Origin: Zootoca vivipara
Lineage: Eukaryota
Assembly (NCBI RefSeq): GCF_963506605.1
Contig: NC_083292.1
Span: forward strand, 40,920,001-40,984,000
Direction of reading: 5' to 3'
DNA length: 64,000 nt
The notes under the pieces were generated by a model. The model was not told the DNA's origin. It saw only the letters and a program-made list of their open reading frames with translations, and ran no database searches. This document shows, piece after piece, positions 2,845 through 48,662 of the stretch; position 1 is the first letter of the stretch, and each line of letters begins with the position of its first letter. Both the position numbers and the translations under genes were made by a program.

Positions 2845-2913
2845 AATTCCCCATGATATTTGCAGAAGCGGTTGTAATCACAGTTGATTTGAGAATTACT
2901 GGGGAGTTAATCA
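2845..2913 (-). promoter_or_regulatory. Conserved V2R upstream module (gene A)
   Basis: AATTCCCCATGA..TAATCACAGTTGATTTGAGAATTACTGGGGAGTTAATCA, ~220-290 bp upstream of the ATG; homologous to the copies at the other four genes. Confidence 0.65.
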
Positions 2914-3691
2914 CATGTTTAGCATTTACTGTGGAGGTGCAGAAGAACATTTCCCCCCTGACATATCAGCAGAGGTCAGTAGGCTTCACAGCCCTCCCCG
3001 GTGAGGCAACAATAAGCTCCAAAGCCACTAAAGGCCACTAAAAAAGAGTAGCATTGAGAAACAAGCAAAGACTAACATACCACCCTATACCCGGGGGTCT
3101 CAGAGCAGTTGAGAGAATATCAGGGTGGTTCACAGAATAATCTGGCATCAAATGGTAATGGTACCTTAAAAAGTATTCATTTCCTAATCTCAGCCCATGG
3201 GCCCATAAGATAATAGGAACCATTGCATTTTCTCTGGTATTCAGGGACCAAGAAAAGGAGACTTATTCCATAGATACATAGGCCAACCATTAAATTATGT
3301 TAGTGACTAAATCCTGCTGTTGATCTTTTTAAATATATATATATATATTTATTATATAGTAACATTCACATCACCATCATTATTTTCCTTAAGACAGATG
3401 TTTTTAAAACATTTAAAAGCCCTTTTGTGGGTGGGAGAACAATCCTGCTTTTCTTTCATGACACTAGACTTATTCTGGTGGTTGTAAAAATTACGTTATG
3501 ACAGACCCAATCCTGAGATGTCAAAACACCAGGCCTGGTAGAGAGGCAGTTTTCTAATTTAGTTGGGGTGTGTGGATAGTTCCAGCCAAAAATCTGGGGA
3601 GCCTTCTCGCCCTAGGTCAAGCTTTTTTCACCAATCCTTTTTCTCCACTCAAATGTGGATGAACACAAGGCATGCCAAACACGTTGTCTTG

Positions 3692-3878
3692 CAGGTAGGT
3701 AGCCGTGTTGGTCTGACGTAGTCAAAACAAAAATTAAAAAATCCTTCCAGTAGCACCTTGCAGACCAACTAAGTTTGTCATAGGTATGAGCTTTCGTGTG
3801 CATGCTAAGGTGCTGCTAGAAGGAATTTTTTATTTTGTTTCGACTATGTCAGACCAACACGGCTACCTACCTGTAACT
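3692..3878. mobile_element. Penelope-like element terminal-repeat palindrome (ribozyme core truncated)
   Basis: Inverted arms GTAGGTAGCCGTGTTGGTCTGAC..GTCAGACCAACACGGCTACCTAC; same family as 38060, 45857, 54325 and 58221. Confidence 0.7.
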
Positions 3879-4320
3879 GAAACATTGATAAAGATGTTGA
3901 ATAAGACTGGGCCCAAGACAGAACCCTGTGGCACCCCACTAGTCACTACTCTCCAGGATGAGGAGGAGCCATTGATGAGCACCCTTTGGGTTCAGTCAGC
4001 CAGCCAGTTACAAATCCACTGAATGGTAGCATTGTCTACCCCACATTTTACCAGCTTCTTTACCAGAATATCATGGGGCACCTTGTCAAAGGCCTGGCTA
4101 AATTCAAGATAGGCTATATCCACAGCATTCCCTTCATCTACCAGGCTTGTAATTCTGTCAAAAAATGAGACCAGATTAGTCTGACATGACCTATTTTTCA
4201 GAAACCCATGCTGACTTTTAGTGATCACAGCGTTCCTTTCTAGGTGCTCACAGACCGTTTGCTTAATGATCTGCTCTAGAATCTTTCCTGGTATTGATGT
4301 CAGGCTGACTGGGTGGTAAT
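3879..4320 (-). mobile_element. CR1 LINE reverse transcriptase fragment
   Basis: [41 protein letters not shown]. Confidence 0.9.
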
Positions 4321-6462: not shown

Positions 6463-9400
6463 ATCAGTCTGTATTCCCTTGTCAACGATCACCATCAAAC
6501 TGAAATGATTTATAGAGGAAAGAATCATTCTGTTTGTATTGTCAATTGTAATTCAGATTTGTTAAGTATAATTGGTTTCATTCACACTAAAATGGGACTG
6601 CCTGTTTGTATTGGTGAAAGGGCTTAACTCGAGGATTCCATTGAAGCTAAAGGCGTGCAACAGGAGCTCACCCCGTTGTGTGCAATCGAACACCAATCCC
6701 TTGAAACTAAAGAACAGCAAGAAGAGCTCTCTCTGTGATTTAACCAAGTTGATAATTAACTGGTTGTTGTTCTCTAGCAGTTAACATGTGAGTGAATAAC
6801 ATTAAATCAGGTGATAAGGGTTTTTGGTTGAAAATCTCCATTTTGAAAGGAGTTACCTTTGCATTTCTTTGTTTTCAAACTTTGTGGAGTGAGGATGTAA
6901 ATGAAGGTCTCCAAGTAAGTACCTCCAGGCTAAAGCGGCTGGATGGCAGGCAGTGAAGCCTGTGTGTGAGTGTGTGCGAGAGAGCTGTTTGCCAGCTTTG
7001 AATATAAATTAAAGTTATTTCTAAGCTGGACAGCACAAGGTATTGTGAGGATATTTTTTTATGTATCATTGATGTTTTTGTTTTGTTTTTGAAGAACGTT
7101 CTGCAAGTAAACTTTTTAATTAAACATATGGGCCTTGACAACATTTTTATTCCAAAAGGACTCTGTTTTCATGTATCTAAACTGTTCAATATTAGCATCA
7201 CCAATAAAAATTGCCTATTCATTCTTCATGAAATAATACAATAACTGAAAACACTGCTAACCATTATAGTTCACTTTTTTCTGAGCTTTGTTATAGAGTT
7301 CAAATCCAAAAATCAGTATGAAAATATATGGAAAACTGAACTACAAACATTTTTTAGCATCGTTAGATAAATGAGTTTCAGCCTGATATGCATCCAGTGG
7401 ACTACATGCTATACTTCTGAGAACTTTATACATTATCATGATTACCCTTCTGGTTGGAGATCTTTCCTTCTGGACATGGAAGACAATCATAGCAGCAAGA
7501 TGGCTTCCCCTCCTTCTTGCCCTTTCTATAACCTGGATGACAATTGTCATTGCACAGAGAAATGGGACGCGACTGTCAATAAAGGAAAGCACAGAATATT
7601 TTAACATTCAAAAAATAGATTTAGATAGTTTGTATCATATAGTTTAATCTACAGCTGAGAACGAGGTTGAGGTTGGCATGGCATAATAAATTTGCTTGAG
7701 TCTTAGGAGTTGCTTTCTATGCAGTATGACTGATTGAACTTCCACCTTGGTTGGTTGATAAATGAGCCTCATCTAGCTGACATGAGAAAGAGGCAAAGTT
7801 GGTTCCAATTCTGAAGAATAAGCCATTTTTAAAACTTTGGGGAAATAATGGGAACCATCTGAAAAGTTTTGTGGACCCTTACCTGGTTATAGATATTGGG
7901 CCATACAATGGCATCCTCAACAATAGTGAATGTTTGAGGAGCATCTGGGTCTATGTTTCCAACTCTGACTCTAAGAAAAGATTGATTTGGGAATGTGACC
8001 CAATTTATAATATCAAATCCAGCTTGTAAGGCCCCCTTTCGATCAAATGAAACCTTTTCCCCAGCACTGTTGTTAAATGAAACATTTCGTAGAAAACATT
8101 GGAGCTAAAGGGAAGAGAGAGAGAGAGAGAGAGATCTTAAGAGAGATGCAAGGCAAGAATACAACACACTTCAAACTAGGATCAATGGGCTCTTTAAATG
8201 ATCAGTGCAGGATGTGGCTGTTGTCTTTGTCCATGGAGTTTTCTTGGCAGGGATACTGGAGTGGCTTGCCAATTCCTTCTCCAGGTGGATCACGTTTGGT
8301 CAGAACATAACTTCTCCAAGTTATTTAAGCCCCTTCGCCACGACAAGGCAGTGATCCATGAAGCAGAAGACATCAAGAAGAGCTGGCAAGAATACACAGA
8401 GGAATTATACCAGAAAGATATGGAGGTCTCGTACACCTCAGGTAGTGTGGTTGCTGACCTTGAGCCAGACATCTTGGAGAGTGAAGTCAAATGGGCCTTA
8501 GAAAGCATTGCTAATAACAAGGCCCGTGGAAGTGATGATATTCCAGCTGAACTATTTAAAATTTTAAAAGATGATGCTGTTAAGGTGCTACACCCAATAT
8601 GCCAGCAAGTATGGAAAACTCAGCAATGGCCAGAGGATTGGAGAAGATCAGTCTACATCCCAATTCCAAAGAAGGGCAGTGCCAAAGAATGCTCCAACTA
8701 CCACACAATTGCGCTCATTTCACATGCTAGCAAGGTTATGCTTAAAATTCTACAAGGCAGGCTTAGGCAGTATGTGGACTGAAAACTCCCAGAAGTGCGA
8801 GCTGGATTTCGAAAGGGCAGGGGAACCAGAGACCAAATAGCAAACATGCGCTGGATTATGGAGAAAGCTAGAGAGTTCCAGAAAAACGTCTACTTCTGCT
8901 TCATTGACTATGCAAAAGCCTTTGACTGTGTCGACCACAGCAAACTATAGCAAGTTCTTAAAGAAATGGGAGTGCCTGATCACCTCATCTGTCTCCTGAG
9001 AAATCTCTATGTGGGACAAGAAGCTACAGTTAGAACTGGATATGGAACAACTGATTGGTTCAAAATTGGGAAAGGAGTACGACAAGGTTGTATAGTGTCT
9101 CCCTGCTTATTTAACTTATATGCAGAATTCATCATGCGAAAGGCTGGACTAAATGAATCCCAAACTGGAATTAAGATTGCCGGAAGAAATATCAACAACC
9201 TCAGATATGCAGATGACACAACCTTGATGGCAGAAAGCGAAGAGGAATTACAGAACCTTTTAATGAGGGTGAAAGGGGAGAGCGCAAAATATGGTCTGAA
9301 GCTCAACATCAAAAAAACCAAGATCATGGCCACTGGTCCCATCACCTCCTGGCAAATAGAAGGGGAAGAAATGGAGGCAGTGAGAGATTTTACTTTCTTG

Positions 9401-12400
9401 GGCTCCTTGATCACTGCAGATGGTGACAACAGTCACGAAATTAAAAGACGCCTGCTTCTTGGGAGAAAAGCAATGACAAACCTATACAGCATCCTAAAAA
9501 GCAGGGACATCACCTTGCCGACAAAGGTCCGTATAGTTAAAGCTATGGTTTTCCCAGTAGTAATGTATGGAAGTGAGAGCTGGACCATAAAGAAGGCTGA
9601 TCGCCGAAGAATTGATGCTTTTGAATTATGGTGCTGGAGGAGACTCTTGAGAGTCCCATGGACTGCAAGAAGATCAAACCTATCCATTCTTAAGGAAATC
9701 AGCCCTGAGTGCTCCCTGGAAGGACAGATCGTGAAGCTGAGGCTCCAATACTTTGGCCACCTCATGAGAAGAGAAGAATCCTTGGAAAAGACCCTGATGT
9801 TGGGAAAGATTGAGGGCACAAGGAGAAGGGGACGACAGAGGATGAGATGTTTGGACAGTGTTCTCGAAGCTACCAACATGGGTCTGACCAAACTGCGGGA
9901 GGCGGTGCAAGACAGGAGTGCCTGGCGTGCTATGGTCCATGGGGTCACGAAGAGTCGGACACGACTAAACGACTAAACAACAACAACAGCAGGATGTGGC
10001 AGTTCATTGTTCCAAGCAGGAAGCCAGTGATGTTCTCCTCCACAGTACTATGAGCTCAAGCAGGGCAAACCCCCTTATTCCACGATGTTCTTTGTCTTCT
10101 GGAGGCTACTGAACATGCTTTGGTGTGTGGGGAGTTGCTTTCTTATACTATTAAAAATATGTGCTTTTCTGCATATTGTGGAGTTAACCAACATGAAAAA
10201 CAAACTTCGGCCACAGTGACATTAACCAAACAGTATGAAGGTGCAAAGACCAGCTTGCTCATTGGGCACTTATAACCCTCAAAATTGTCTCCTGCAACAT
10301 GACAGGCTGGTTCACTTGCCCGCCCAGGAGTCTGGATATCTATTTTACTGTGTTTACTGTGAACAAGAACACCAGAAAACAAGTTGAAAAATGGGTCCGT
10401 GAGAAACCATGTCTGCAGCTGCCCCAAACCCAGACTTGGCACAGAGAGTGACCACTCTTCTTTTACCTGCCATGGGAGTTCAGTGAGAAACTTCTTTCTC
10501 TGTCCTCTCTGTCCTCTCTGTCCTCCGGCAATTGCTTTCTTTTTGGACTTGGACAAATCCATGGATTGCAGGGCATGGACCATAGCATAAACAGCCAGGT
10601 AGATGTTGTAACTGTGAGCAGTTGCACTCATTTCAAAAACGGATGCTGGAAGAGTGTCTAGCTTCTCCTTCCCTGTGCAGAATTCCTCATTTGCCATGTC
10701 TACCTTGGTGTCAGGGAGAAGACAGGTAAATGTATGCTCCCAGAATACTCTCAGAAATTTGTCTTCTTTTTCTGAAATGGGGTTCCTGTTCTGAATAAAT
10801 TTATGGAATCCTAACACCCCTTTAAAGTGAACTGCAAAAGATAGAGCACCATGGATGAAGTCTATGTCCCACTGTCTTTGCAAAGGAAATGAAGTGAAAT
10901 CCATTTGAGCTGTCATAACCAGGAGTTTTGCATTCTTTTGGCCACTACTGAATTTCCAAACCTCGATCAATATTCTCAAGATTAGCATGGTCTGAATTTC
11001 ACCATGCACAACCACCACACTGACAGTGCTCGCCATGATTCCCACAGCCATGTTTATCCCCTTGCCCACAATTACACCAAAAGCACTGGAGGATCCTTGT
11101 TTCGGTAAACGTTCTATGAAGGCAAAGCAGATGCCTCTTTGGGAGAAGCTGGGAAGCACATTCTGCACAAACCTCTCTCCGTTGTCATCATCCAGATAAA
11201 CTACCCCAATCCATGTCCACCTGAAATGAAGAAGTAACTGGAGAATCCCCATATATTGGTGAGCCCCATTTGGGAACATCTGTTGGATGAAAGCACCTTG
11301 TTTTTCAGTATCCAGTGCTGGGGCGGAACCGTATGCAAGCTAAAGAAATATTAAAATAAAACAGTAAAGTTCTCATCATATTATCATGTTCTTGTAGGTT
11401 AATGTGTGCATATCCGGCAAAACAGCTACTACCAAAGCATAGTGCTTCTCACAAAGTATCACCTGAGAAGCATCAACCTTTTCTTTTGAACCTTCTGCCA
11501 ATCAAACCTCATCTTAAACTCTGATGGTACCATAGATCAATGCCAAAGGGGTTTGCTGCTCATGCAACAGGACTTTGTGTCTCTCTCGTCCTCTGTGTCG
11601 CCTCCAGCATGCCCCTTGGGTTGCGCAAAAAAGGCCCTTTAAGAATCCACCTGAGTGTGCTTCAGAAACAGGAGGGGATCCACCAGACTTGCAGCTAAGA
11701 CATGTCTGTGATCAGACCTGGCACCTCTTGGAACATACACAGCTGTCCCACCAACTTAAGGGCTATTGTTGGTAGTGACCCAAAGGTACAGACACTCACT
11801 GCCGTCAGAAGGCTGGGATGGGTTTTAAAAAAATAAAATTAAGATAAAGGTATATATAGGCTTTGAAACAGAAATCTCTGTTTATGCCAAATGGATCTGA
11901 GATAATGTAGACATTCTCCCTATAGTCAAGTTTTCCTGCAAGGCTTCCAGTGTGATTTCAGCCACATCCATTATAACCTCCAAACCACATCTAAAAAGCA
12001 AGAGAAGCAACCCGTAGTTTGCTCTTTGCGCATGAGCAAAGCTTACCTGTGGCATCTTGTAGTTGCTCAGGATGGTTGCCATATGGAGGCAGACATTGGA
12101 ATTAGGTCCCCCAATGACTGCTACAGGATTGCTACGGGTGTCACACTTGTAGTTTGGGATAAAATTTTCCTGAGTCGAGAGAAGTTCCATTGACGCTTGA
12201 TAGGTTCCACTTGCGCTGAACTGGCTATTATAGATCTGGAAGCCCAAAGTGATGTTGGGTAAGAGTCGAGGGTTTAAATTGATTTCGCTGACAGCAAATA
12301 CCAAAGCCATGATGTGCTGGTAGAGCTGGGTCAGTACCCTGTAAGGAGAGTTACATACCACAATATGGTTCATCTGCTTCAGATTATATTGGGCACAATT

Positions 12401-13184
12401 CTATACATTACATACTTAACTGTGGCATTTCGTCAAGCTATGTATTACAGCTCATATACAGGAAAGAGCTGTTGACTGTGGTAAGGCAGCCACTGGCATT
12501 TTATCCCATTTACTCTTCTCAATATGCATCTAATAATGACACTTGCTGGAAGCTAAAGAAGGCCAAGTTTGAATAGCAATTAGGGAGGCTTTGTATTTCT
12601 TAAATCAGGTCTATTCCAATTCTTGAAATTATCAGATACCATATATTTAACAACAGAAGATATACTGAAAGTACTCGGATGAATTTAAAACCATAGGGTT
12701 GGTAATGATTGCCTGTAAACTCTTATCTAATCCAGAATATCTAATACACAATACAATTTAAAATTTCATTCCCCTACAATTTAATAGTAATAATAAAAAT
12801 AAAAATAATTCATTATTTTTTCCCCAGCCACTCTGGGCGGCTTCCAAAAAAATATTAAAATAAAATGGTCTGTTAAACATTAAAAGCTTCCCTAAACAGG
12901 GCTGCCTTCAGATGTCTTCTAAAAGTCTGGTAGTAATATTATCAGTTACATTTTATAACTCCTTACATGATATCACCAAAGAGCTCAGTAGAGGGAGGTT
13001 TTTGAAATGTCATTGGACTTGAAAATACAAAGTTTTGTGAAGAGATGCCAGCAATATTGAGATCTCCAGGCTGATAATACTTGTGGAGAATAGGAAGAGG
13101 GTCACTGATACTACATTTAGCATTTGGAAGCTTGCACACTGCTTGAGGCAACAACACAAATACTAACACAACTAACACCATCAT
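5196..13184 (-). CDS. V2R: V2R gene B, complete six-exon vomeronasal type-2 receptor (~877 aa)
   Basis: Join of 12967-13184, 12047-12338, 10467-11339, 7883-8104, 7446-7572, 5196-6097 = 2634 nt, open frame. Contains VFT, cysteine-rich domain ([15 protein letters not shown]) and 7TM ([25 protein letters not shown]). Confidence 0.96.
6349..6460 (+). mobile_element. L2 LINE 3' end with (TTA)n tail
   Basis: GCCCTGTTTAGGGAGGCTTTTAATG..GGGCGGGGTATAAATAATAAA matches the 3' ends of the 15-16 kb and 40 kb L2 copies. Confidence 0.75.
7446..7572 (-). CDS. V2R: V2R gene B exon 5 (cysteine-rich domain)
   Basis: 127 nt; [42 protein letters not shown]. Confidence 0.94.
7883..8104 (-). CDS. V2R: V2R gene B exon 4
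   Basis: 222 nt; [40 protein letters not shown]. Confidence 0.94.
8219..9988 (+). mobile_element. Bov-B (RTE clade) LINE, internally deleted, in intron 3 of gene B
   Basis: RT with RYADDTTL; in-frame stops at 8780 and 8948; (CAA)n tail; 12-bp TSD GCAGGATGTGGC at 8207-8218 and 9989-10000. Confidence 0.95.
10467..11339 (-). CDS. V2R: V2R gene B exon 3
   Basis: 873 nt; [30 protein letters not shown] followed by GTAAAA. Confidence 0.95.
12047..12338 (-). CDS. V2R: V2R gene B exon 2
   Basis: 292 nt; [26 protein letters not shown]. Confidence 0.95.
12810..12933 (-). mobile_element. L2 LINE 3' end
   Basis: Reverse complement of the 16315-16430 sequence. Confidence 0.75.
12967..13184 (-). CDS. 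V2R: V2R gene B exon 1
   Basis: 218 nt; signal peptide [17 protein letters not shown]. Confidence 0.92.
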
Positions 13185-13413
13185 TTAATATTAAAATCTG
13201 ATTTCTAGAAAGAATTTCACCTATTCCAGCATTGCTATTCAAGGAGCTGTGGATCCTGGAATTAGATTCAAATGGCAACTTATTCAGCAGATGTGACAAT
13301 TTGCATTTCAGAATGACGGGGCTCTGCCTGTCTCTTCCTCTTTTCTGAATGGTGCAAAGGGATATGGATGGTTTATTCAGTGTCAACACATAGTTTTCCT
13401 CATGACCATGGAC

Positions 13414-13482
13414 AATCCCCAGGAACTTTGAAAACAAGGAGAATTAATCATAGTTAATTTGATAATTACAGAGGAGATAATA
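13414..13482 (-). promoter_or_regulatory. Conserved V2R upstream module (gene B, proximal copy)
   Basis: AATCCCCAGGAA..TAATCATAGTTAATTTGATAATTACAGAGGAGATAAT. Confidence 0.7.
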
Positions 13483-13784
13483 AACTTATTCAGAACTCTA
13501 GCTGCTCCATGAAAATGTTCAGTTGATCTAAACTAATTGAATACAGTGCCTACAAAATTGAAAGGGACTTAAATTATTACTAGTTTGCCACCTTGTTTTC
13601 CATGGGGCCTAATTTCAACTCACTTGGTATGGAACTGATTCAAGCAAATATGATGCAGTGTGAAGTTGCAGCAAAGAGATTGATGACGTTGTGTCTGTTT
13701 CTAGCTTTAGTTCTAAGTTTCACAGGAAATAATACAAACCTATATTTCACTGTTGGTTTGTAATTTAGCTAGTGCCCACTAAAG

Positions 13785-13848
13785 GTCTCCAGGGAATTGG
13801 AGAAAATGCAATCACAGTTAACCTGATAATTAGAGGGAAAATAATCAC
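13785..13848 (-). promoter_or_regulatory. Second (distal) copy of the V2R upstream module for gene B
   Basis: TCTCCAGGGAATT..CAATCACAGTTAACCTGATAATTAGAGGGAAAATAATCA. Confidence 0.6.
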
Positions 13849-14414
13849 TACTCAGACTTCTAGGTTCTCTAAGACATGAAAAAGAAAACATGTTTAACTC
13901 AACATAATTTTCTTCTCTATAAGAAAAATGAGGTATTCAAAAAAGACTCTTTCGAATAAAAATCATTGTGCAATATATTTATATGTAGAGCTGTGTTAAA
14001 ACCTTTTTAAAAAAAAAGCAGCTGTCCAACATAAAGCGGTCTCCCTTCAGTTTTCATCTAAAAGGGGGCATACACCTCCCAAAACTCATGTTATTTCATA
14101 TGTGTGATCACTATGTCTGCCAAAATGAAACATTTTTTCAAATTTTCCCATATGATGGAAACGCCAAAGGGGAGTGAAAGTTGCAGGTGTAGTTTTGTGA
14201 TTTACAGGCCAAGCTCCTTATCCGGTTGAATTATTTTACAAAGGCTAGATACCGGTAGTCACATTGTTTTCCAAGGTAGAATATTTAAGTACAAAAATGT
14301 TGCTCTTGCCTATATTCTGTGCTGTTTCTTCAGAGCAGAAATGTATTGGTAGGGTTGTAGTTTTCTTAGAATCAGAGAATTGTGGGTTGGGAGGGAATAT
14401 GCAGGAATATCCAA

Positions 14415-14488: not shown

Positions 14489-15077
14489 TGGATGATAAAC
14501 TACCTGTTACCCAGTTATATTGCCCAACAAGCCTTGCTGGATCAGACTGGGAGTCCATCTAGTCTAGCCTCCTGTTCCCACATAAACCAGTTCTTTATGA
14601 GGCACCCACAATACCAATGTAAGTTGAGCACATATATATTGCTGCAGGGGGAAAATCTGTCAAAGAAAAGTGAGTGGGGGCAGGAACCAGGAGAAAGAAA
14701 GCAAGGAAGATCTTTATTTGTCTTTTCACAGAGTGTAACTTGTCTCCCGTCTGTCAAGATAATCTGATAACGTTTGCTGGTTGCCCTCACCTTGGCCATT
14801 CTGGGCCATGCTGTTGAAGTAGTAAATACCTTAGTTATTGAATCCAATTCACAGACATACTCTGTACATACACAAAATATGCCCTTTTGACAGGATTTGA
14901 AGGATTTGTAAGTGAAAAGAACTATTGGGAGAGGTTTTTCCAAGACATTCCCTTCTGCAGAAGAAATATTTGGGGTCATTAAGAGTCAAGAGGGCTTCAG
15001 GAGCTAGTCGGGAAGGGCTGGGTGATGGGCTACGCAGGGTGGTGAATGCTTCTCCCTGTGAGAGAGCTGTCCCAGAC

Positions 15078-16441
15078 CCGCTGGTTGAGCAAGTGGTTGC
15101 TGAACAACTCCAGGCATGCCTGGAAGAAACAGACCATTTGGATCCCTTCCAGTCGGGATTCAGGCCTCATCATGGGACTGAAACTGCCTTGGTCGCACTG
15201 GTTGATGATCTCCGGCGGGCTAGGGACAAAGGTGAGAGCTGCTTCCTAGTTCTGCTGGATCTCTCAGTGGCTTTTGATACCACCAACCATAACATCCTTC
15301 TGGACCATCTAGAGGGGTTGGGAGCTGGGGGCACTGTTATACAATGGTTCCGCTCCTTCCTCCTAGGCCGTGTTCAGAAAGTGGTGTTGGAGGATGAGTG
15401 TTCAGACCCCTGGGCTCTCACTTGTGGGGTGCCTCAGGGTTCCGTCCTCCCCCCCATGCTTTTCAACAACTACATGCAGCCGCTGGAAGAGATCATCAGG
15501 GGGTTTGGGCTGGGTGTTCATCAATATGAGGATGATACCCAGCTCTACCTCTCTTTCAAATCAGAACCAGTGAAGGTGGTGAAGGTCCTGTGTGAGTGTC
15601 TGGAGGCAGTTGGAGTATGGATGGCAGCTAACAGATTGAGGTTGAATCCTGACAAGACAGAAGTACTGTATGTGGGGGACATGAGGCGGGCAGGTGTGGA
15701 GAACTCCCTGGTCCTGAATGGGGTAACTGTGCCCCTGAAGGACCAGGGGCGCAGCCTGGGAGTCATTTTGGACTCACAGCTGTCCATGGAGGCGCAGGTC
15801 AATTCTGTGTCCAGGGCAGTTGTTTATCAGCTCCATCTGGTACGCAGGCTGAGACCCTACCTGCCCGCAGACTGTCTCGCCAGAGTGGTGCATGCTCTAG
15901 TTATCTCCTGCTTGGACTACTGCAATGCACTCTATGTGGGGCTACTTTGAAGGTGACCCGGAAACTACTACTAATCCAGAATGCGGCAGCTAGACTGGTG
16001 ACTGGGAGCGGCCACCAAGACCACATAATACCAGTCTTGAAAGACCTACTTTGGCCCCCAGTACGTTTCCGAGCACAATTCAAAGTGTTGGTGCTGACCT
16101 TTAAAGCCCTAAACAGCCTCTGTCCAGTATACTTGAAGGAGCATCTCCCCCCCCCATCGTTCTGCCTGGACACTGAGGTCCAGCACTGAGGGCCTTCTGG
16201 CGGTTCCCTCCCTGTGAGAAGTGAGGTTACAGGGAACCAGGCAGAGAGCCTTCTCAGTAGTGGCGCCCGCCCTGTGGAACGCCCTCCCACCAGATATCAA
16301 AGAGAAAAACAACTACCAGACTTTTAGAAGACATCTGAAGGCAGCCCTGTTTAGGGAAGCTTTTAATGTTTAACAGACTTTTGTATCTTAATATTTTGTT
16401 GGAAGCCGCCCAGAGTGGCTGGGGAAACCCAGCTAGATGGA
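15078..16441 (+). mobile_element. 5'-truncated L2 LINE (RT domain to 3' end) between genes B and C
   Basis: [36 protein letters not shown] (YADD mutated); frameshift near 15945. Confidence 0.92.
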
Positions 16442-17066
16442 CCGCTTCTTGTTCAGAAGTGTGCAATCTTTGTTCACCAGGCTTCTTCTTGCCCCCTGCT
16501 TAATCTTACGTGGCCCACAACATAACCTGTGTTAAACTACATGAAGAAGGTTGGGCTCCAGATAATGTTCACCTTTTTCGTGCAGGCTAGTCCACTTTTC
16601 GTGACTATTGGCTGTTTCCCAGTCAGCTGAGCAGCACAAGGGGCATTGCTGGAAGAGGACGCTTTTGAACCTTCCACCTCCCAATTCTGATGGAAATTTC
16701 CCATCCATCCACCCCTGTGCTGCCATCAAGGGTATCGCCTACTTTTACTTCACTGCAATTAAACAAAACCCTACTGGAATTGTGAAACCTCAGTTCATAA
16801 TATAACAATGGATACTTCCATTTGCACTATGAAAACCTAGCCCAATTTGGAATGTGCACACAATCTTGTAAACTGGCTATCATTTAAGAGCCTTTTTCTT
16901 TTCTTTTTGGACACCACAAAGTCCTTGTGGTCTTTATTTTATTTTTTTACTGTTAGTCTTTTGATGTCTTATTAAGGAGGATGAAATAGGAACTGTTGCT
17001 GACGTGTGATGAACACCTCACCCCCACCCCCACCCTGCCTTGTCTCAGAGACTGCAACGCTGTGAG

Positions 17067-17131
17067 GTTATTATCTCTCTTGCAATTATGGCAATAACTA
17101 TGATTACTTCTCCAGTTCTCCAGAGAGTTCC
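17067..17131 (+). promoter_or_regulatory. Conserved V2R upstream module (gene C)
   Basis: Reverse complement reads GGAACTCTCTGGAGAA..GTAATCATAGTTATTGCCATAATTGCAAGAGAGATAAT; orientation follows the gene. Confidence 0.7.
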
Positions 17132-17358
17132 ACTGTCCAGTTGCAAAACATCAAAGCAAGACAGAGGGTTGCTTTTAATATCATCTGCACCATTCAGAGC
17201 TGGGGCTTGAGGTGCAGAGAGCTGTATCAGTCTGATTGCTAATACTTTGTATCATGTCACCCTGGCTTCAGTCTTCTGAGTGAGTGTGGAGTCAAGCCAG
17301 AGACTTGCTGATGTAGGAACAGGTTATTTTGTTTCTAGAAAGGAGGTTTTCATGCAGT

Positions 17359-17576
17359 ATGGTGATATTTGCGGTGTTGGTATTAGTACTGCTTCCTCAA
17401 GCAGTGTGCAAGGTTCCTGTTTCTAGATGCCATGTTAGTCACCCTCTTCCTATTCATCACAAGTATTATCAGTCAGGAGACCTCATAATTGGTGGCATTA
17501 TTTCTCATATCTTCCGGTTTTTAAGTACGTTTCACTTCCGAAACCGTCCCTCTCCTGAACATTTTGATGATCTCAT
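17359..17576 (+). CDS. V2R: V2R gene C exon 1
   Basis: 218 nt; [26 protein letters not shown]. Confidence 0.92.
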
Positions 17577-20500
17577 GTAAGGAGTTGGGTTTTCTTAAAT
17601 GTACCCTATCTATCCTGATAATATTTGTTGCTGGTCTGATTCTGTTATGGTCTTCAAAATCTAAGGGGCCTATTTGCCTGTAATATGGTTTGTTGTATTC
17701 AATCTGTAGATGTTACAATGCCTGCAAATTTTATCCACATTGGTCAAAAGAGATGGGGGGCAGTTATAGCTTCTTTAAAGAAATAATAATAATAATAGCC
17801 AGTATCAGTAACATAGCAGATAACCTGGGTTTAAATATATTGCATGTGCTATCTAAAAGCTACCAAAAGGGGGGGTATTGTTTGAATAATAGGCATGTAA
17901 GTCAAAAGTTGAGGTTTGAATGTCAAGATCAATTCATATGTTCCTCAACCTTGGCCATATAGTGCAAGAATGTTTAGCAATTGAGTATTGACTTGAAATT
18001 TCTAGCACACTCATTTTAAGGTGGCAATTTCTTTCATTTTAGAGTTCTGACTCAGCACTACCAGCACATCCTGGCCTTGGTTTTTGCTTTAAAAGAAATA
18101 AATGAAAATCCCCAGATCTTAGCCAACATCAGCCTGGGTGCCCATGTCTGTAACAGTGAATTCAGTGCAAGAACCATATATCTTGCCTCCATGGAACTTC
18201 TCTCCACAAAGGGAAAGTTTTTTCCTAACTACAAGTGTGCTATCCGGGAAAATCTGGTAGCAGTCATTGGGGGACCTAATTCTGATGTTGATCTCAACAT
18301 GGCAGTCATGCTGTATAACTACAAGATCCCACAGGTAAGTTTTCACATAAAGTACAGGAATTTAGAGAGCTATTGTCTATCCTGCTTTCTTCAAGGTGAA
18401 GTTTTTCTTGTGGAGATTATAAAGAGGGTTTGAGATAAATAGGAACCCCGTTTACTCTGTTTAGGCATAACATTCTGTCCAAGAAAAAGAATATTTACAG
18501 CTGATTCACAGTTGGCTGTTCTGGTATTCATGCACATAACCACTTACAGGGAAGTCAAGAACTTCTCTACATTCTTGAAGATTTTGGTTACTCTTTGAAC
18601 TGCAAATATTGGCTATGATCCAAAGGGCAACTAGTTTCTGATAGGCCAAATATTATTTTTTGTTTTCTTCAGTTTTTAGATCTGAGGGGACTTTCAGAAA
18701 CAATTTGTGGAGCAATATATTTGTTGGATATGGGCATCTGAGGGATGGAGAGAGGGACATTTCAAAATAATAATAATAATAATGTTTATTTATTTATCCA
18801 TCCATTAATCCATCCATCCCCCACATTATTCCCTTACAGGGACTCAATGTGGCTTACAGATAAAAAATACAAATGGCTAAAAATATACTTTAAAAAATAC
18901 AAATTAACATTAATACAATAACTTACAGTAAATCTTAAACTACTATGTTTTTATGCAACATACTAGTTAATATTAAAAGAAATGAAAAATTCCAGCATAT
19001 TGTGTGTTCCATAATATTTAGCCTTGAACGGCACCACATGGTGCTTGGGATCATTTAAAATAATTGTTTGGAACATGGCACACTTCTGTTGTAGGTAAGT
19101 AAGAGGTAGCTCTAATAATAAAATTTCAGGAAATATTTTCAGGAATTTCAGGAAATATCCATGTCACAGCAAATTCTAAAACAAAGAAACAAAAAAACCA
19201 AGTTATGGGCAATGTAATGTTCCTAAACTAAAGTTGCTGACCAGTGTTTTGAACCAGTGTGCCATGATCCAAGTTCAAAACATAACAGAATGCAAACATC
19301 TTTAGCTCTTCATGTCTTGATGTGCTTTTCATCTCCAGTAGGTTAGGAATATAAAGAGGGTGCTAGCGCAGTTTGCTGCCCTAACCTGGTCCACCAGCCT
19401 CCCAGGTCCTGCCCTATTTACACCTCAGTGCTCCTGTCTGCAACCCTTGTGAAATATCTACCACAGCTTAGTAGCAAATCTTCTGTGTGGATGCATTAAA
19501 TAGCAATAGTATCATATGGTGATTATTTGCACGGTCAGGCGGAGACCCCCGAAACCCCAGGCAGCCCCCGAGCGGAATAACGACACCAGACAACGTTCTA
19601 TGGGATTAAAATTGGCCACAACTTTATTAAGAGTCAGATGTAGGGAGACCTTGGCACAGGCATTGGGTATTTATCCTTCCCAGCCCCCCAGCCAGGGGTC
19701 TGGGTAATTTCCGGGTTATCCAGCATATGTGGGAGTTGGGCTAGCTCTGGAGAACATATGTTAAAGCAGATAGCCTGCCCCCCTTTTCGCCACCACTGGA
19801 GGGGGAGGGCAATTACGGCCCCTGCGCAAATGCTCAATGCCTCCCTCCTAGACCCCTTTAACGGGAATCTTGGTATCGCCGCCGCAATGGGGGTGGGGAG
19901 TCACCTCTCCCATGCCCCCCCCCATTTTGGTAAATGTCTAAAGGATTCCGCCCAACCAGGTATGTCTCACCTTCTGCTATGTGCACCGGATGGTTACCTC
20001 CTCCTACCTGGCCAGCCCCCTCCTGGCAACACCTCCCCCAGCTGGATTGGACGGCTGGCTGTGTGGGCGGAGACCACAGGTATCCAGCCTGGGAAGGTGA
20101 TGCTAGCCTCCGAACTGCGGTGGGCTGCCCAAGGCTCCCAGGGTGCTACGCACGACCGCAAAATGCACACCAAACGGTCATTGCAGATAGAGCAGAAACT
20201 ATCCATGCAACTGGGAGGAAGGGCCATTTTTTACTATCCCTCTTCCACTCTGGAGTTCCCCGTGCCCACTTCTACAAATGTTTTTTGGGGGGGCTCTCAT
20301 TAGCAATGTTTGGTTTGTGTGGCATACTGCAGTGGAGAAAGAGACCACCAAAAACGATCTCATTTCCAATACAGCTGATGGACAGTAAGCACTGGATCAA
20401 ACCCCGTGTCTGTGCCTTCTTCAGTCTATCACACCTGTAGGAACTGAGAAGATTTTGAATCATCATAGTTCATAGATATTTGCTTAAGTAACAAGATGAA

Positions 20501-28736: not shown

Positions 28737-28738
<2 letters not shown>

Positions 28739-28873
28739 GGAGCACTGTGCAAACTGCTGAAAGTGTTTTCCTTGTTATTAAGCGTTAACTATTGGGTTTC
28801 TTGTCAATTAAGAGTTAACTTAATTTGGCAGGGGAGGGCCAGGACAGCCCTGCATTGTAAGCTCAGGTTGTAT

Positions 28874-29293: not shown

Positions 29294-29604
29294 CAGGGGT
29301 CAGCAACCTTTTTCAGCTGTGGGCCGCTCCACCATCCCTCAGACCATGTGGGGGGCCGGACTATATTTTGGGGAAAAATATGAACAAATTCCTATGCCCC
29401 ACAAATAACCCAGAGATGCATTTTAAATAGAAGCACACATTCTACTCATGTAAAAACACTGGGCAGGTCCCACAAATAACCCAGAGATGCATGTTAAATA
29501 AAAGGACACATTCTACTCATGTAAAAACACGCTGATTCCTGGACTGTTCACGGGCCGGATTCAAAAGACGATTGGGCCCATGGGCCTTAGGTTGCCTACC
29601 CCTG
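29294..29604. mobile_element. hAT-type MITE with an internal ~70-bp tandem duplication
   Basis: CAGGGGTCAGCAACCT..AGGTTGCCTACCCCTG; 8-bp TSD CTTTAAAC. Confidence 0.85.
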
Positions 29605-30748: not shown

Positions 30749-30878
30749 NNNNNNNNNNNNNNNNNNNNNNNNNNNNNNNNNNNNNNNNNNNNNNNNNNNN
30801 NNNNNNNNNNNNNNNNNNNNNNNNNNNNNNNNNNNNNNNNNNNNNNNNNNNNNNNNNNNNNNNNNNNNNNNNNNNNNN
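30749..30878. other. Assembly gap (130 N)
   Basis: Run of N. Confidence 1.
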
Positions 30879-30997
30879 CAGCGAGAAAATCATGTTGACT
30901 ATGGACTATGGAATTGTACTGCCTTTACATTTTTCATAGCTTTGGAAATCATTGTGGTTGGATTTCCTTTTTAATGTCTTAGTAAAGTACTAATTCA

Positions 30998-31336
30998 GGG
31001 GACGCGGGTGGTGCTTGATGATCAGAAGGTCGGCGGTTCGAATCCCCACAACAGGGTGAGCTCCCGTTGCTCGGTCCCAGCTCCTGCCAACCTAGCAGTT
31101 TGAAAGCACGTCAAAGTGCAAGTAGATAAATAGGTACCGCTCCGGAGGGAAGGTAAAAGGCATTTCCATGCACTGCTCTGGTTTTGCCAAAAGCGGCTTA
31201 GTCATGCTGGCCACATGACCTGGAAAAACTGTCTGCAGAGAAATGTCAGCTCCCTTGGCCAGTAAACCGAGATGAGTGCAGCAACCCCAGAGTCGGCCGC
31301 AACTGGACTTAATGGTCAGGGATCCCTTTACCTTTT
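30998..31336 (+). mobile_element. Sauria SINE
   Basis: GGGACGCGGGTGG..GGTTCGAATCCC (B box)..CCCTTTACCTTT tail. Confidence 0.9.
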
Positions 31337-31632
31337 AAAAGTACCAGTTTACTGATTTTTTAGGCTTTTATGGATATCAAGGAACTGATTATCTCACCAA
31401 CTTATACACTTTTTAACACGAACTCTCCCTCCCATTGTGCTGGTTTAAGCACCATGTTATTTTCAATAGGTCCTCTATTACAAAGTCCATAGCTGTTTTG
31501 GGAGACTATGGCCTCAGATCTCACCTGCAATATCTATTTTAACCCTGACAGGCAGCTGTTTCAGGGTTTGAACCAGAAACCAATCTTTCAACACTGAATA
31601 AATAACTGGAGACAACCTGCAGTAGACCTTAC

Positions 31633-31860
31633 TTGGTTGAACCTGCGGGGCCACACAACTGTGTTGTCGTGAATGTTGAACCTCTTGTCTGGGGAAGCCT
31701 GGGGGTCTATTTTCCCAACTTTGACTCTAAGGAAGGAGTCATTGGGGAATATGACCCAGTTGATAATATCAAATCCAGATACCAGTTCCCCATTTTGATC
31801 AAAGGAAACTTCTTCTTTAACACTATTGTTAAACGAGACACTTCTCAGAAAGTGGTGAAG
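31633..31860 (-). CDS. V2R: V2R gene D exon 4
   Basis: 228 nt; [26 protein letters not shown]. Confidence 0.94.
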
Positions 31861-34800: not shown

Positions 34801-37703
34801 ACGGGAAGAACATTTTGTACAAATCTCTCTCCATTGTCATCGCTCAGAGAAAGCACCCCGGTCCACGTCCAGGTGAAATGCAGAAGCAACCGGAGAATCC
34901 CGACATACTGATGAGCTCCGTTTGGGAACATGTAGCAGAGGAAAGCCGCATGGAAGTCGGTGTCTGTTAGGGGATGAGAGCCATAGATGACCTAAAAATA
35001 ATATTTTTGAAAAAGAAAAAGGGATACCAACTACATTTTTTCCATTTATTTAATAATTATTAGCATAGAGTCATACTGTTATGCTACTTATTTAGATGTT
35101 TTATATGCCTGTTGTCTTTGAGAGCTGGACCATAAAGAAGGCTGATCGCCGAAGAATTGATGCTTTTGAATTATGGTGCTGGAGGAGACTCTTGAGAGTC
35201 CCATGGACTGCAAGAAGATCAAACCTATCCATTCTGAAGGAAATCAGCCCTGAGCGCTCACTGGGAGGACAGATCCTGAAGCTGAGGCTCCAAGACTTTG
35301 GCCACCTCATGAGAAGAGAAGACTCCCTGGAAAAGACCCTGATGTTGGGAAAGATGGAGGGCACTAGGAGAAGGGGACGACAGAGGACGAGATAGTTGGA
35401 CAGTGTTCTCAAAGCTACCAACATGAGTTTGACCAAACTGCAGGAGGCAGTGGAAGACAGGAGTGCCTGGCGTGCTATGGTCCATGGGGTCACGAAGAGT
35501 CGGACACGACTAAACAACTAAACAACAACATTTAGATGTTTTGCTTATGCTGCTCTATGACCATAATAAAGTACTTCATAAACAGGCATGGTGATGCAAA
35601 ATCAAGGAGTGAATCATTTCAGGCTGTAGTTTATGAATTGTACATCCAGGCAGAATATACCAGTGACCCGACAGTGTAGTATATTATGTCTTAGGAGGAG
35701 TTAAATCTCCACTGAGAACTACCCAAACATTCAAATATAAGCCTTAAAGGACATAGTGGAAAACAGGAAATGGATCGTTAATAACCAATATTCTGTGCCC
35801 ATATCTTACTTGTGGCAGCTTGTACATATAGAGGATGGTTGCCATGTGAAGACCTAGATCAGAGTTTGGTCCCTCAATGACTGCTCTTGGAATGTTCTCC
35901 GTGTCACACTTGTAGTTTGGAATGAATCTTCCCTGCCTGGAGAAAAGTTCCATTGAGGCCAGGTACGTCCAGCTTGGACTAAAATGGCTATTGTAGATGT
36001 GGAATCCCAAGGTGACATTGGGCAAGATTTCAGGGTTTTCATTTATTCCCTTTATAGCAAACGCCAAAGCCACAACATGTTGGTAGAGCTGTGTCATTAC
36101 TCTGAAATAAGAGAGCTACTTGCTGTGTAAATAATGCATCTTCACACAGAAAAATAGATTTATGCCTATAGTCCAGTGAATCACATGGATACACTGGCAA
36201 ACATTTCTTAGCATTGCAAATTATTTGAACTGATTTTAATATTGCATTTTTTATTGTTTTTTATCAAACAATGATTTCCTAAGTTCTAATTTTATAAACA
36301 CTAGTTTAGATATTTGTGCTTCTTTATTTTTTATATTTCAGGGTTCTTCAGACTCCCTCAGGGCTGCCATAAATTCATTTAAAATGCTTTTAAAGCTTCC
36401 TAGTAGTTTGGGCTAACAGGCTTAGGTGAAGGACAACCTTACTGACTAAGATTGTTTATTAAAATGATGTTTTGATAATAAGGGAACATTGATATTTGCT
36501 TTGGGATCTTACATATGCATGATGATAATGACGCAAGAGATGCTGTTGCTGAAAGCAGCTTCTACAGGAGCACTCCTATGGAAAGATCTGTTGGAATAAG
36601 AAGCTTAGGATGCAGTAGATTAAAAAAAGTGGGGAGGGAGCGTTTAGCTTGGATGTAGGAAACAAGCTAGGGGACCTCTGATAATGCTTGTAGAAGTCAG
36701 GCCTTGAAATGGGGACTCTGTATAGTAAAAATGGCTTTAAATTATTTCCTTATCTAGAGCAAGCTGGCAGGCAAAAATATTTACATAAACTCTTCCCTAA
36801 TGAACTTTTATCAGTTTAAGGGAGCAGCAGCAGCTCACCAACTCTCTATTAAGGGAGAATAAATGAAGAATACAATGAATACAAAAAGCTTTGAAAGGGG
36901 CTCAGCCTGAAAGCTTCTTGGAGGAGAACGTGGCATGACTCAACAACCTAAATATCTAAAGGAATAGATATTACAGGGCTTCGGTGAACATTTGGAGGAA
37001 AAATAATGAACGCATCAGGATCTTGAATATAGGGCATTGAGACTACAGTATCTGAAGCATTGGCTTTGGCAGTGACTCATGAAAACACAATTAAAAATTG
37101 AAACGGGATACTGTGGACCTCCTACTTAGCTAGCTGATTGATGGGTCATCTGGGACAGTCACCATTAACTCCCCATCCATGACTCTATTTAAGATACACC
37201 AGTGTAACTTGTTCATTCTGAGCCAAGACTGGTGTAAGCCCCCCAACACAACACCCGAGCACAAAACCCAACTTTTTAAAGACTTTTCAAGACTTGTTTT
37301 TCACTTGCCATTGAGTGGCTTTGCATCTTGCTTCATACCAGCTCCTTGTGCATAGGATGGCTGCCCAGAGCTGCCATAACACCAGAACTAATGGGAAGTT
37401 AGAGGGATGGAGTAGTAGCATCAGTAATATTCACTATGGATTCATTATATATGTATGATATGGTTAAAAGAGCACAACTCCTTACAGAAAGTCATCAAAA
37501 AGCTCAGGAGAGGGAGGTTCCCTGAAAGTCATGACACTTGAGGTCACATAGATTTGAGACATAATGCCAGCAATGAGGAGGCCTCCTGACCGATAATATT
37601 GGTGAAGAATAGGAAGAGGCTCTTCAATGGAACACTGAGCAACAGGAAGTTTGCACACAACTTGAGGCAGCAACACCAATACCAAGAATACAAATGCTAC
37701 CAT
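31633..37703 (-). CDS. V2R: V2R gene D, exons 1-4 intact; exons 5-6 not seen (assembly gap at 30749-30878)
   Basis: Join of 37486-37703, 35810-36101, 34131-34991, 31633-31860, open frame. Alternative upstream ATG at 37724. No cysteine-rich or 7TM exon found on the - strand between 26128 and 31633. Confidence 0.9.
32321..32615. mobile_element. Tc1/mariner (Tigger-like) MITE
   Basis: TIR CAGTGGTACCTCGACTTACGAA / TTCGTAAGTCGAGGCACCACTG; TA TSD. Confidence 0.88.
34131..34991 (-). CDS. V2R: V2R gene D exon 3 (a possible alternative donor extends it to 34002)
   Basis: 861 nt; VIYGSHP..QPWQ|GTAATG. Confidence 0.94.
35103..35529 (+). mobile_element. Bov-B 3' fragment in intron 2 of gene D
   Basis: [23 protein letters not shown]..; 13-bp TSD ATTTAGATGTTTT at 35090-35102 and 35530-35542. 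Confidence 0.92.
35810..36101 (-). CDS. V2R: V2R gene D exon 2
   Basis: 292 nt, ends KLPQ|GTAAGA. Confidence 0.95.
37486..37703 (-). CDS. V2R: V2R gene D exon 1
   Basis: 218 nt from [14 protein letters not shown] (239 nt from ATG 37724). Confidence 0.9.
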
Positions 37704-37950
37704 CTTACAGGAGGGAATCTTCATTTTAGAAGACAGTTAATCTCTCTCCCCACCCCTGTACATCACTGAAGAGCAAATCTTACTAGAATGGCAATTGACT
37801 CAGCTGATTCAATGCTAGAAGCATGCAACATACATAATCAGTGATCAGAGCTACAGAGCCTTGTGAGTCTATAGTTCAACCTCTGAATGGCACTGGGGGT
37901 ATTAATAACATCTGCTAGTGTAAGTCTGTTATTTGGAGTGTGGTTATTGG

Positions 37951-38018
37951 ATATCCCTTAGGGTGGAGAGAAAAGTAGCAGCAATTGTGATTAATGATTA
38001 TTACAGAAGAAATAATCA
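37951..38018 (-). promoter_or_regulatory. Conserved V2R upstream module (gene D)
   Basis: ATATCCCTTAGGG..AATTGTGATTAATGATTATTACAGAAGAAATAATCA. Confidence 0.62.
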
Positions 38019-38059
38019 CCTGTTCTGGGTTATACATTATCAGTGACTTTGGCAAACAA

Positions 38060-38272
38060 AATAAAAAAATTCCTTCAGTAGCACCTTAAAGACCAACTAA
38101 GTTTTTATTTTGGTATGAGCTTTCGTGTGCATGCACACTTCGTCAGATACACACTTCTTCAGATGCACACAAAAGCTCATACCAAAATAAAAACTTTGTT
38201 GGTCTTTAAGGTGCTACTGAAGGAATTTTTTTATTTTGTTTCGACTCAGACCAACACGGCTACCTACCTGTA
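38060..38272. mobile_element. Penelope-like inverted terminal-repeat insertion
   Basis: Palindromic arms; flanking duplication ACTTTGGCAAACAA; hammerhead motif on the - strand. Confidence 0.75.
38113..38150 (-). ncRNA. Minimal type I hammerhead ribozyme motif
   Basis: GUAU CUGACGA A GUGUGC AU GCACAC GAAA GCUC AUAC. Confidence 0.65.
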
Positions 38273-47600: not shown

Positions 47601-48377
47601 TGGCAGACAAATATAGATGTGTTGTTCCCATGAACAGGAGTGATTCACATCACTCAAATATACAGAGCAATAGTTTAGTTACTATTGAGTTCTGGAGAAC
47701 TTTAAAGAAAAGGATGAATGCTTTTTTTCTTATATTAGTTGCAATTTATTTTGAGTTAAATCCTGGGATATTTTGGAATTAGGCTATAATTTATTGCAAT
47801 GATTATCAACAACAGAGACAGCAGTCGTATTATTAAGATTCTGTGTGTTTGCCTTTGGAAATTTCACATATTTATCACACATATGTGTCAGTACTAAAAG
47901 CTGTTGATTTCAAAACAGAAAAATGGTTTAAAAGAGCTACTCACAATTGTGTGTTTGCTCACTACCAACTGACACTGTTTATAGTTACCAATATTGATTG
48001 AGCAAATCTACCCTCAACCATAAATACTGGAACTATTTAAAGGGGGGGAAGATGGTGAATAATGATGAAATAATATCACAAATGCAGAATATTTTGATTG
48101 CAGGTGTATAATATGGTTAGCAAAGTACATCTCCTTACAGATTGTCATCAAAAAGTTCAGTGGATGGGGGCTTCTCGAAGGTTGGCGTACTTGAAGTTAT
48201 ATAAAGCTGTGACATAATGCCAGCAATGATGAGGTCTCCAGACTGATAATATTGGTGAAGAATAGGAAGAGGGTCCCAGATGCAACATTGAGAAATAACA
48301 ACCTTGCATGCAACTGGTAGCAGCAGCAACAGTAACCAGTTTGCAAATAGGGGGTTGAAGGGGAAAATCTTCATCAT
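40705..48377 (-). CDS. V2R: V2R gene E, complete six-exon vomeronasal type-2 receptor (~880 aa)
   Basis: Join of 48139-48377, 46396-46687, 44722-45564, 43696-43923, 43009-43135, 40705-41618 = 2643 nt, open frame; exact start ATG uncertain. Confidence 0.95.
42151..42682 (+). mobile_element. Solo LTR (532 bp)
   Basis: TGTCAGGGG..CCCCTGACA termini; 5-bp TSD GGTTC; AATAAA near 42613. Confidence 0.85.
42738..42827 (+). mobile_element. 90-bp hAT MITE (copy 2)
   Basis: 15-bp TIR; 8-bp TSD AGTGTCTG. Confidence 0.9.
43009..43135 (-). CDS. V2R: V2R gene E exon 5
   Basis: 127 nt; [28 protein letters not shown]. Confidence 0.93.
43431..43520 (+). mobile_element. 90-bp hAT MITE (copy 3)
   Basis: 15-bp TIR; 8-bp TSD TTCCTCAT. 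Confidence 0.9.
43696..43923 (-). CDS. V2R: V2R gene E exon 4
   Basis: 228 nt; [23 protein letters not shown]. Confidence 0.94.
44459..44702. mobile_element. hAT-type MITE next to the gene E exon 3 donor
   Basis: TIR TAGGGTTGCCATA / TATGGCAACCCTA; TSD degenerate. Confidence 0.75.
44722..45564 (-). CDS. V2R: V2R gene E exon 3
   Basis: 843 nt; LIYGSSP..HSWQ|GTAATG. Confidence 0.95.
45857..46012 (+). mobile_element. Penelope-like terminal repeat fragment
   Basis: Flanking duplication TAACTGGACATAAT (45843-45856 / 46010-46023); contains a hammerhead motif. Confidence 0.75.
45870..45907 (+). ncRNA. Minimal type I hammerhead ribozyme motif
   Basis: GUAU CUGAAGA A GUGUGC AU GCACAC GAAA GCUC AUAC. 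Confidence 0.68.
46396..46687 (-). CDS. V2R: V2R gene E exon 2
   Basis: 292 nt, ends KMPQ|GTAAGT. Confidence 0.95.
47385..47560 (+). mobile_element. CR1 3' end
   Basis: GGACTAGATGA..GGTCCCTTCCAACTC..TTCTATGATTCT tail. Confidence 0.8.
48139..48377 (-). CDS. V2R: V2R gene E exon 1
   Basis: [33 protein letters not shown]; donor GTAAGG. Confidence 0.88.
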
Positions 48378-48588
48378 TCCCCACACTGTCATTTGAGTGT
48401 CCCTGAATAACAACATCTGAGCAGAATAGCCACACATGTAGCTGACACAAAGCCGGAATTGCACGATGTGAAAAAATCAGTAATCAGACTGACAGAGCCC
48501 TGGCTCTCAGTAACACAGCTTGTGAATGACATTGGGGATATTAATAACACCCAGAAGCCTTGGTTCATAAGTCTGCATTTGTCCGTTG

Positions 48589-48662
48589 GAATTCCCTAAC
48601 AGCAAGGAGAAGAAGTAGACATAATTATGATTAATTTTATAATTACAGGAAAGACCATAATC
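48589..48662 (-). promoter_or_regulatory. Conserved V2R upstream module (gene E)
   Basis: GAATTCCCTAA..ATAATTATGATTAATTTTATAATTACAGGAAAGACCATAAT. Confidence 0.62.

Follow-up and report, generated by a model that had tools for sequence, protein, structure and literature searches.

A homeodomain-type upstream module, probably the proximal promoter, of clustered V2R genes in Zootoca vivipara

The window analysed here, a 64-kb stretch of Zootoca vivipara DNA (G000:C17:40920001-40984000, contig NC_083292.1), contains five V2R first exons with start codons at 2624 (gene A), 13184 (B), 17359 (C), 37703 (D) and 48377 (E), of which C lies on the plus strand and the others on the minus strand. Each is preceded by a homologous, gene-oriented module of ~200-250 bp, which in the DNA examined is restricted to V2R genes, takes a common position upstream of their first exons and has a constrained YAATTAT core. 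The module, with its homeodomain-type core and its inheritance by duplication, is likely to be the proximal promoter of almost every sampled clustered V2R gene; it is real and family-wide, and probably works like the promoters of odorant receptor (OR) and V1R genes. It departs from the OR and V1R pattern in that a single module, dominated by homeodomain-type sites, can be aligned between very distant clades, O/E (Ebf) sites playing a secondary part.

Within the window, V2R identity was checked by the set of signal-peptide, Venus-flytrap, cysteine-rich and seven-transmembrane (7TM) exons, with six coding exons each in genes B, C and E (the 7TM exon of gene C matching PF00003), an incomplete gene D, and a gene A that leaves the window. 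A profile built from 48 genes outside the window gave exactly six strong matches in the 64 kb (E 1e-18 to 1e-33), the next one having an E value of 0.8. An earlier sequence-only reading of this DNA had described one block of ~70 bp per gene at near-constant distance from the ATG. All five blocks were recovered where it had placed them, mutually alignable, gene-oriented and about 212-315 bp from the ATG, but the homology extends over ~200-280 bp, and gene B carries a second, full copy of the module that had not been listed. Likewise, the near-constant spacing holds locally but not family-wide, where the core has a median position of -322 (10th-90th percentile -599 to -250, 69 genes). Closer to the genes, the TGAATG reported for B-E is present in all four (sense CATTCA), whereas the TATTAA reported for C, D and E is found in D and E (sense) and also in A, where it had been overlooked, gene C having TTTTAA.

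Beyond the window, the protein search yielded 460 exon-1 candidates, 150 of which were scored, and 7TM searches gave 745 and 727 candidates. From the 150 scored candidates, 80 loci were taken, resulting in 93 exon-1 matches, which were reduced to 90 (flank of at least 1.2 kb and exon nearly complete), 89 (one degenerate copy dropped) and finally 64 (near-duplicates removed). Together with 55 further stretches from other clusters, the final sample comprised 85 non-redundant genes (88, then 84, then 83 for motif finding, plus 2), i.e., roughly an eighth of the V2R family of this one genome, with a bias towards relatives of gene D. Using a leave-one-out profile, from which relatives with at least 72% exon-1 identity were removed, the module was found at 10 bits or more before 79 of these 85 first exons (75 at 15 bits), all matches being sense and upstream, on contigs C17, C13, C14 and C2. 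Among 258 control windows two passed, one through the module of a head-to-head neighbour and one through an orphan copy. A profile from the five window genes only detected 23/24 other genes of clade I, 8/15 of clade II, 2/12 of clade III and 0/7 of clade IV (downstream controls 0/64); when trained on clades I-III, it recovered 5/7 genes of clade IV, whose module is diverged and located 600-800 bp upstream. In the C2 clade the module is retained despite an exon-3 protein only 27-31% identical to that of gene C.

Genome-wide specificity was judged from two exact patterns, each set against a control pattern. One gave 21 matches, 17 of them inside V2R clusters (reversed control 1), and the other nine, seven of them inside clusters (control 2). 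Each of the six cluster matches outside the exon list turned out to precede a V2R exon 1, so that the module had predicted first exons not seen before and offers a way to find divergent ones. At four off-cluster matches, neither a V2R within 4 kb nor an extended module was found. For a divergent V2R on contig C13 (L115-L116, G000:C13 ~40.736 Mb, minus strand), exon 1 had escaped the protein profile and was traced to a point ~340 bp downstream of a clear module.

The same distribution bears on the possibility, raised by the sequence-only reading, that the block matches a transposon consensus. V2R clusters are rich in pieces of long and short interspersed elements (LINE and SINE), and very common words are passed over in the genome DNA search, whose result on rarity is therefore not decisive by itself. 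In DNA run X4, however, depth over the block was 15 compared with 356,000-492,000 over the neighbouring repeat, which makes the block single-copy-like. Moreover, 83 of the 90 profile matches from the 80 loci and the window were sense and within 800 bp upstream of exon 1, the other seven lying on the plus strand, 1.1-2.8 kb upstream of exon 1 or before the next gene, and the pattern matches concentrate in V2R clusters. A transposable element, dispersed independently of genes and in either orientation, was thus rejected on depth and distribution, and descent of the block from a transposon fragment is extremely improbable.

According to the sequence-only reading, the introns show no comparable similarity, and this was borne out. 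Between -450 and -150, all ten pairs of the five genes scored above the 99th percentile of shuffled sequence, a threshold that is crude because of the few shuffles, vs 2/10 in each of four intron windows. The median pair score of 22 compares with 11 for shuffled sequence and with 9-11 in intron and distal windows; in windows further upstream, 0/10 and 2/10 pairs exceeded the threshold. In the intron-3 window 5/6 pairs did so, yet at background-level scores (median 11 vs 22). In the upstream window, aligned in the same way as the controls, identity exceeds 0.7 in 21 columns and the best 7-column mean is 0.81, compared with 0-3 columns and 0.47-0.50 in four control windows. Over 649 close pairs the introns reach baseline much sooner than the module, and in ten pairs at 75-85% protein identity the core retains an identity of 0.74 vs 0.53-0.59 in introns, with an unrelated baseline of 0.49. 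Conservation of the block therefore goes beyond that of paralogous introns. Evolutionary rates were obtained as per-element scale fits on a 25-gene tree relative to four-fold sites, which replaced over-shrunken posterior site rates. They were lowest for TAATTA (0.33x; likelihood ratio test (LRT) 20.5), TGTAATTATC (0.42x; LRT 23.8) and AATTAA (0.53x; LRT 8.2), with GCAAT marginally slow at 0.61x. The lowest of 40 random 10-column draws reached 0.74x, and the flanks evolve at 1.4-1.7x. Homeodomain-type cores in a homologous, constrained and V2R-specific upstream module, as first proposed from the letters, are hence supported.

In sense orientation, the module consists of AAACATGTTT (forkhead-like), GCAAT, RATTATC, a spacer of 5 to 6 pyrimidines, TGYAATTATC, AATTAA, ATRATTA, a pyrimidine tract, TCCCNNGGGA (O/E, in the local clade), GCAAAA, TATWAA and CATTCAGAGCTGGG, followed by the 5' untranslated region (UTR). 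The labels forkhead, GATA, AP-2 and Y3CAR4 are those which we presume to fit such words. Unseeded expectation maximisation on 83 genes returned the tandem core, TatctccccTgTAATTATc.aAat, as top motif. Around the core, elements were counted in the 69 of 83 genes passing the matrix threshold: a second upstream ATTA occurs in 34, RYAAAYA in 18 and TATWAA in 15 (backgrounds 2-5%), and TATAWA, 75-115 bp after the core, in 11 vs a background of 3.4%. The upstream DNA is AT-rich and CpG-poor (median GC 0.40 and a median of 3 CpG in -500..0, 83 genes). The O/E site turned out weaker than originally claimed, since TCCCNNGGGA is matched with one mismatch in gene B and two in C and D, and by a half-site only in A and E. 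With at most one mismatch it occurs in 10/69 genes, namely 8/28 in clade I, where the consensus is a perfect TCCCTAGGGA, vs 2/41 in the other clades; the distance between O/E-like words and the core is 26-54 bp. An AP-2-type word, GCCNNNGGC, was considered at the O/E position and rejected, being not enriched (4/69). Splice-donor-like words between module and ATG have no common position.

A GATA-type or other non-homeodomain factor might also read the core, as both repeat units contain an antisense WGATAR, present in the core window of 47/69 genes, in part by construction of the anchor. The AATTA columns are, however, 80-98% fixed and the C needed by GATA only 63%, while the T/C variation at the preceding position yields TAATTA or TAATTG, both homeodomain-type words, which makes such a factor very unlikely. 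For Lhx2/Emx2/Dlx-type homeodomain factors, in turn, binding to the core appears reasonably probable, and a clade-specific helper role of O/E (Ebf) is close to an even call. The core fits DLX and LHX matrices, and the distal copy of gene B an O/E matrix (matrices from PMC3247239). Emx2 and Lhx2 are expressed in the rattlesnake vomeronasal epithelium (PMC12400810), and Emx2 throughout the mouse vomeronasal neuronal lineage (PMC11630819).

From its sequence features, the module can with good confidence be regarded as a promoter. Homeodomain factors of the vomeronasal lineage would bind the tandem ATTA cores, Ebf would assist in the local clade, and the TATA-like box would set the start at a predicted position about 110-130 bp downstream of the core, giving window genes a putative 5' UTR of about 150-200 nt. 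For gene C, the spacing of the TATA-like word predicts a start near 17195-17205. Short UTRs would agree with findings in mouse, where rebuilding of the V2R transcripts extended the older gene models by only ~350 nt (PMC4154679). RNA runs of unrecorded tissue gave reads on gene B only at a repeat (X7-X9) and nothing usable on gene C (X9, X10, X13, X14). As an alternative, the block might be transcribed as part of a long 5' UTR, or act as a proximal enhancer, with transcription starting further upstream. Its distance to the ATG spans about -110 to beyond -800, the start position of the module genes is a predicted one, tandem extra copies stand before six genes, and the strict orientation would also suit an RNA-level element. 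Nevertheless, with similarity breaking off sharply ~90 bp before the first core is reached from upstream, a TATA-like word downstream of the core at promoter-like spacing and no Rfam family matching the window (0 matches), this alternative is quite unlikely.

Several points weigh against the module being a promoter under selection throughout the family. As a whole it is not slower than synonymous sites (module scale 1.24x, block 0.88x), and its mean pairwise identity is 0.47 vs 0.50 for synonymous positions. Individually, the first ATTA (1.03x), the TATA-like word (1.04x) and the forkhead-like word (1.41x) are not slower, and the O/E site (0.87x, LRT 0.9), which is largely lost outside clade I, is not significantly so, although four-fold sites may themselves be constrained. 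Six of the 85 genes stay under 10 bits (L011, a truncated C6 gene, L061, L042, L067 and one C14 gene), the leave-one-out alignment was itself built with the test row included, and p-values of the element counts are inflated because paralogues were treated as independent and windows were picked after viewing the alignment. The position of the start site is predicted from the TATA-like word only, and in clade IV and some other genes, where 500-800 bp with several upstream ATGs separate the module from the ATG, there may be an intron in the UTR or a different start. Finally, gene D retains its module though no 7TM exon was found. On this basis, tandem duplication of whole genes could have spread the module as mere ancestral flank, with a function for the short TAATTA alone and a neutral, slowly fading relic around it; an overall divergence equal to or exceeding that of synonymous sites, and O/E, TATA-like and forkhead-like words that are not significantly slow, would fit. 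Yet introns and further-upstream DNA of the same pairs reach baseline much sooner, the flanks evolve faster, and the order and spacing of several words are kept between clades with only 27-31% identity in exon 3, a retention incompatible with neutral DNA, so that a mere relic is improbable. Selection is evident for the homeodomain-type core only, because the remaining words, save the marginal GCAAT, are not slow; for the rest of the module, the kept order and a decay slower than that of the flanks suggest selection.

Whether such a promoter confers eligibility for one-receptor choice rather than general vomeronasal expression can be proposed only tentatively. In mouse, V2R expression has been linked to combinations of transcription factors (PMC11630819), and the module may for this reason serve lineage-specific activation, not stochastic choice. 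Rather doubtful is a further-reaching proposal in which all V2R genes outside family C, i.e., those expressed singly, inherited the module as an ancestral, homeodomain-centred choice promoter older than the squamate V2R radiation. It would then probably be traceable in mouse and frog V2Rs and would split stochastically chosen receptors from the broadly co-expressed family-C receptor, and clade-specific add-ons (O/E, extra cores, tandem copies) would set choice frequency. The single family-C V2R lies at G000:C5:21923062-21954430 (minus strand) beside GMPS, an arrangement described for 19 vertebrates (PMC12400810); it was located through this synteny, as the PF00003 search did not reach it, and its 7TM domain is 43% identical to that of gene C. 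No module match was obtained in the 3 kb upstream of this one deeply diverged gene, an absence that may reflect loss of similarity through distance. Its upstream DNA has a GC/CpG-rich stretch at 500-900 bp and an A-rich, TATA-like word near -68. Presence of the module elsewhere against the family-C gene provides a specific contrast, and a ~250-bp module with one constrained site a ready minimal promoter for assays of V2R switching-on. The surprise is limited, as homeodomain, O/E and TATA are the expected ingredients.

Table 1. Modules, their elements and coding first exons of the five V2R genes in the window
Feature	Position	Strand	Remark
Gene A, module	2781..2976	-	held-out profile match, E 1e-18
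Gene A, ATTA cores	2908-2912; 2892-2898 (TAATTCT, degenerate); 2875-2879	-	element positions
Gene A, O/E half-site; TATTAA	2848-2857; 2796-2801	-	
Gene A, coding exon 1 (signal peptide)	2406..2624	-	remaining gene beyond window start
Gene B, proximal module	13308..13534	-	E 5e-25
Gene B, proximal cores	13478-13482; 13462-13468; 13445-13449	-	
Gene B, proximal O/E-like; CCATTCA	13416-13425; 13346-13352	-	TATA-like word absent at homologous position
Gene B, second, tandem module copy upstream	13678..13916	-	E 1e-28
Gene B, distal copy: TAAACATG; core; O/E TCCCTGGAGA	13889-13896; 13826-13832; 13786-13795	-	
Gene B, coding exon 1	12966..13184	-	exons 2-6 traced down to 5211
Gene C, module	16963..17238	+	E 1e-33
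Gene C, cores	17069-17073; 17083-17089 (CAATTAT); 17102-17106	+	
Gene C, O/E-like; TTTTAA; CCATTCA	17118-17126; 17173-17178; 17190-17196	+	
Gene C, coding exon 1	17359..17577	+	exons 2-6 traced up to 26113
Gene D, module	37835..38061	-	E 1e-23
Gene D, cores; O/E-like	38013-38017, 37997-38003; 37954-37963	-	
Gene D, TATTAA; CCATTCA	37902-37907; 37884-37890	-	
Gene D, coding exon 1	37485..37703	-	in-frame upstream ATG at 37724
Gene E, module	48481..48765	-	E 3e-32
Gene E, AAAAACATG; cores	48707-48715; 48658-48662, 48639-48645, 48621-48627	-	
Gene E, O/E half-site; TATTAA; TCATTCA	48593-48600; 48541-48546; 48523-48529	-	
Gene E, coding exon 1	48138..48377	-	exons 2-6 traced down to 40732

Gene D (26200-38061, minus strand) has open exons 1-3, an exon 4 at 31636-31860 and an intact module; exon 5 and the 7TM exon were not found in the readable sequence up to the end of gene C, a short part of this interval being N, and gene D may be truncated or encode a secreted ectodomain. 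Intron 1 of gene A contains a V2R exon 1 copy that is degenerate and carries a stop (1950-2130, minus strand). Gene B and exon 1 of gene A recur in near-identical form 25-27 kb before the window copies (G000:C17:40897006-40906615), with a 100% identical 7TM protein, which represents a recent duplication or an assembly haplotype; ~160 bp between the two gene B modules are missing from this duplicate and from DNA run X4. Extra or partial module copies before six genes (L041, L030, L031, L037, L008 and gene B) represent local promoter duplications, and an orphan copy is located inside a C14 gene (tile near G000:C14:54387800). LINE reverse-transcriptase fragments and inverted repeats occur at 8200-9990, 14900-16400, 38054-38241 and 49200-49700 of the window, including an inverted repeat with 79-bp arms that immediately precedes module D and another, GC-rich one upstream of E. 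Outside the window, L011 (G000:C7:56874001) is an isolated V2R exon 1 with neither exon 2 or 3 within 6.5 kb nor a module, whose upstream DNA matches a C17 paralogue over only ~110 bp. L101 (G000:C6:27216100-27220000, minus strand) is a V2R-like gene standing alone, whose intact 7TM exon, cysteine-rich exon and a piece resembling exon 1 all fall within 4 kb; it gave no exon 2 or 3 match and no module, i.e., it is a receptor without most of the Venus-flytrap domain.

In the literature searched, the term 'V2R promoter' was met only in passing and no description of a V2R promoter motif was found for any species, although the primary mouse Fpr-rs1 study may already show one and most subscription papers were outside its scope; in the available text of the rattlesnake paper, the words 'promoter' and 'motif' do not occur (PMC12400810). 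OR promoters carry homeodomain and O/E sites, with TATA in some (PMC12547500, PMC3247239, PMC5318403), and in mouse OR genes ~300 bp containing such sites are enough for sparse expression, while multimerised homeodomain sites raise choice frequency (PMC12547500). Like these, the lizard module belongs to a large clustered family and is AT-rich and CpG-poor, with homeodomain cores, O/E-like sites and, in a subset, TATA within a few hundred bases. Unlike mouse OR promoters, which have motifs in common but are not highly conserved in sequence (PMC9668312), it is alignable and ordered family-wide, and its homeodomain core dominates over a clade-limited O/E, whereas O/E is the strongest signal in the mouse. 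An OR enhancer of the Greek island or H element type was rejected, as O/E-like words and core are not side by side and each gene has one oriented copy. Mouse V1R and vomeronasal Fpr promoters resemble the lizard module in that a homologous block with O/E-like motifs is common to paralogues via duplication; however, homology of V1R promoters is reported to be confined to subfamilies, with none evident between them, and V1R transcription starts at a separate non-coding exon, whereas the lizard module spans clades as distant as stated above and adjoins the first coding exon (PMC3247230, PMC9668312). For mouse V2R genes, a 'characteristic' homologous regulatory sequence is mentioned, with no motif content in the available text, and a possible counterpart of the lizard module is the mouse V2R promoter captured by Fpr-rs1, where basal vomeronasal expression is obtained from the DNA at a first exon of a V2R gene (PMC7873101).

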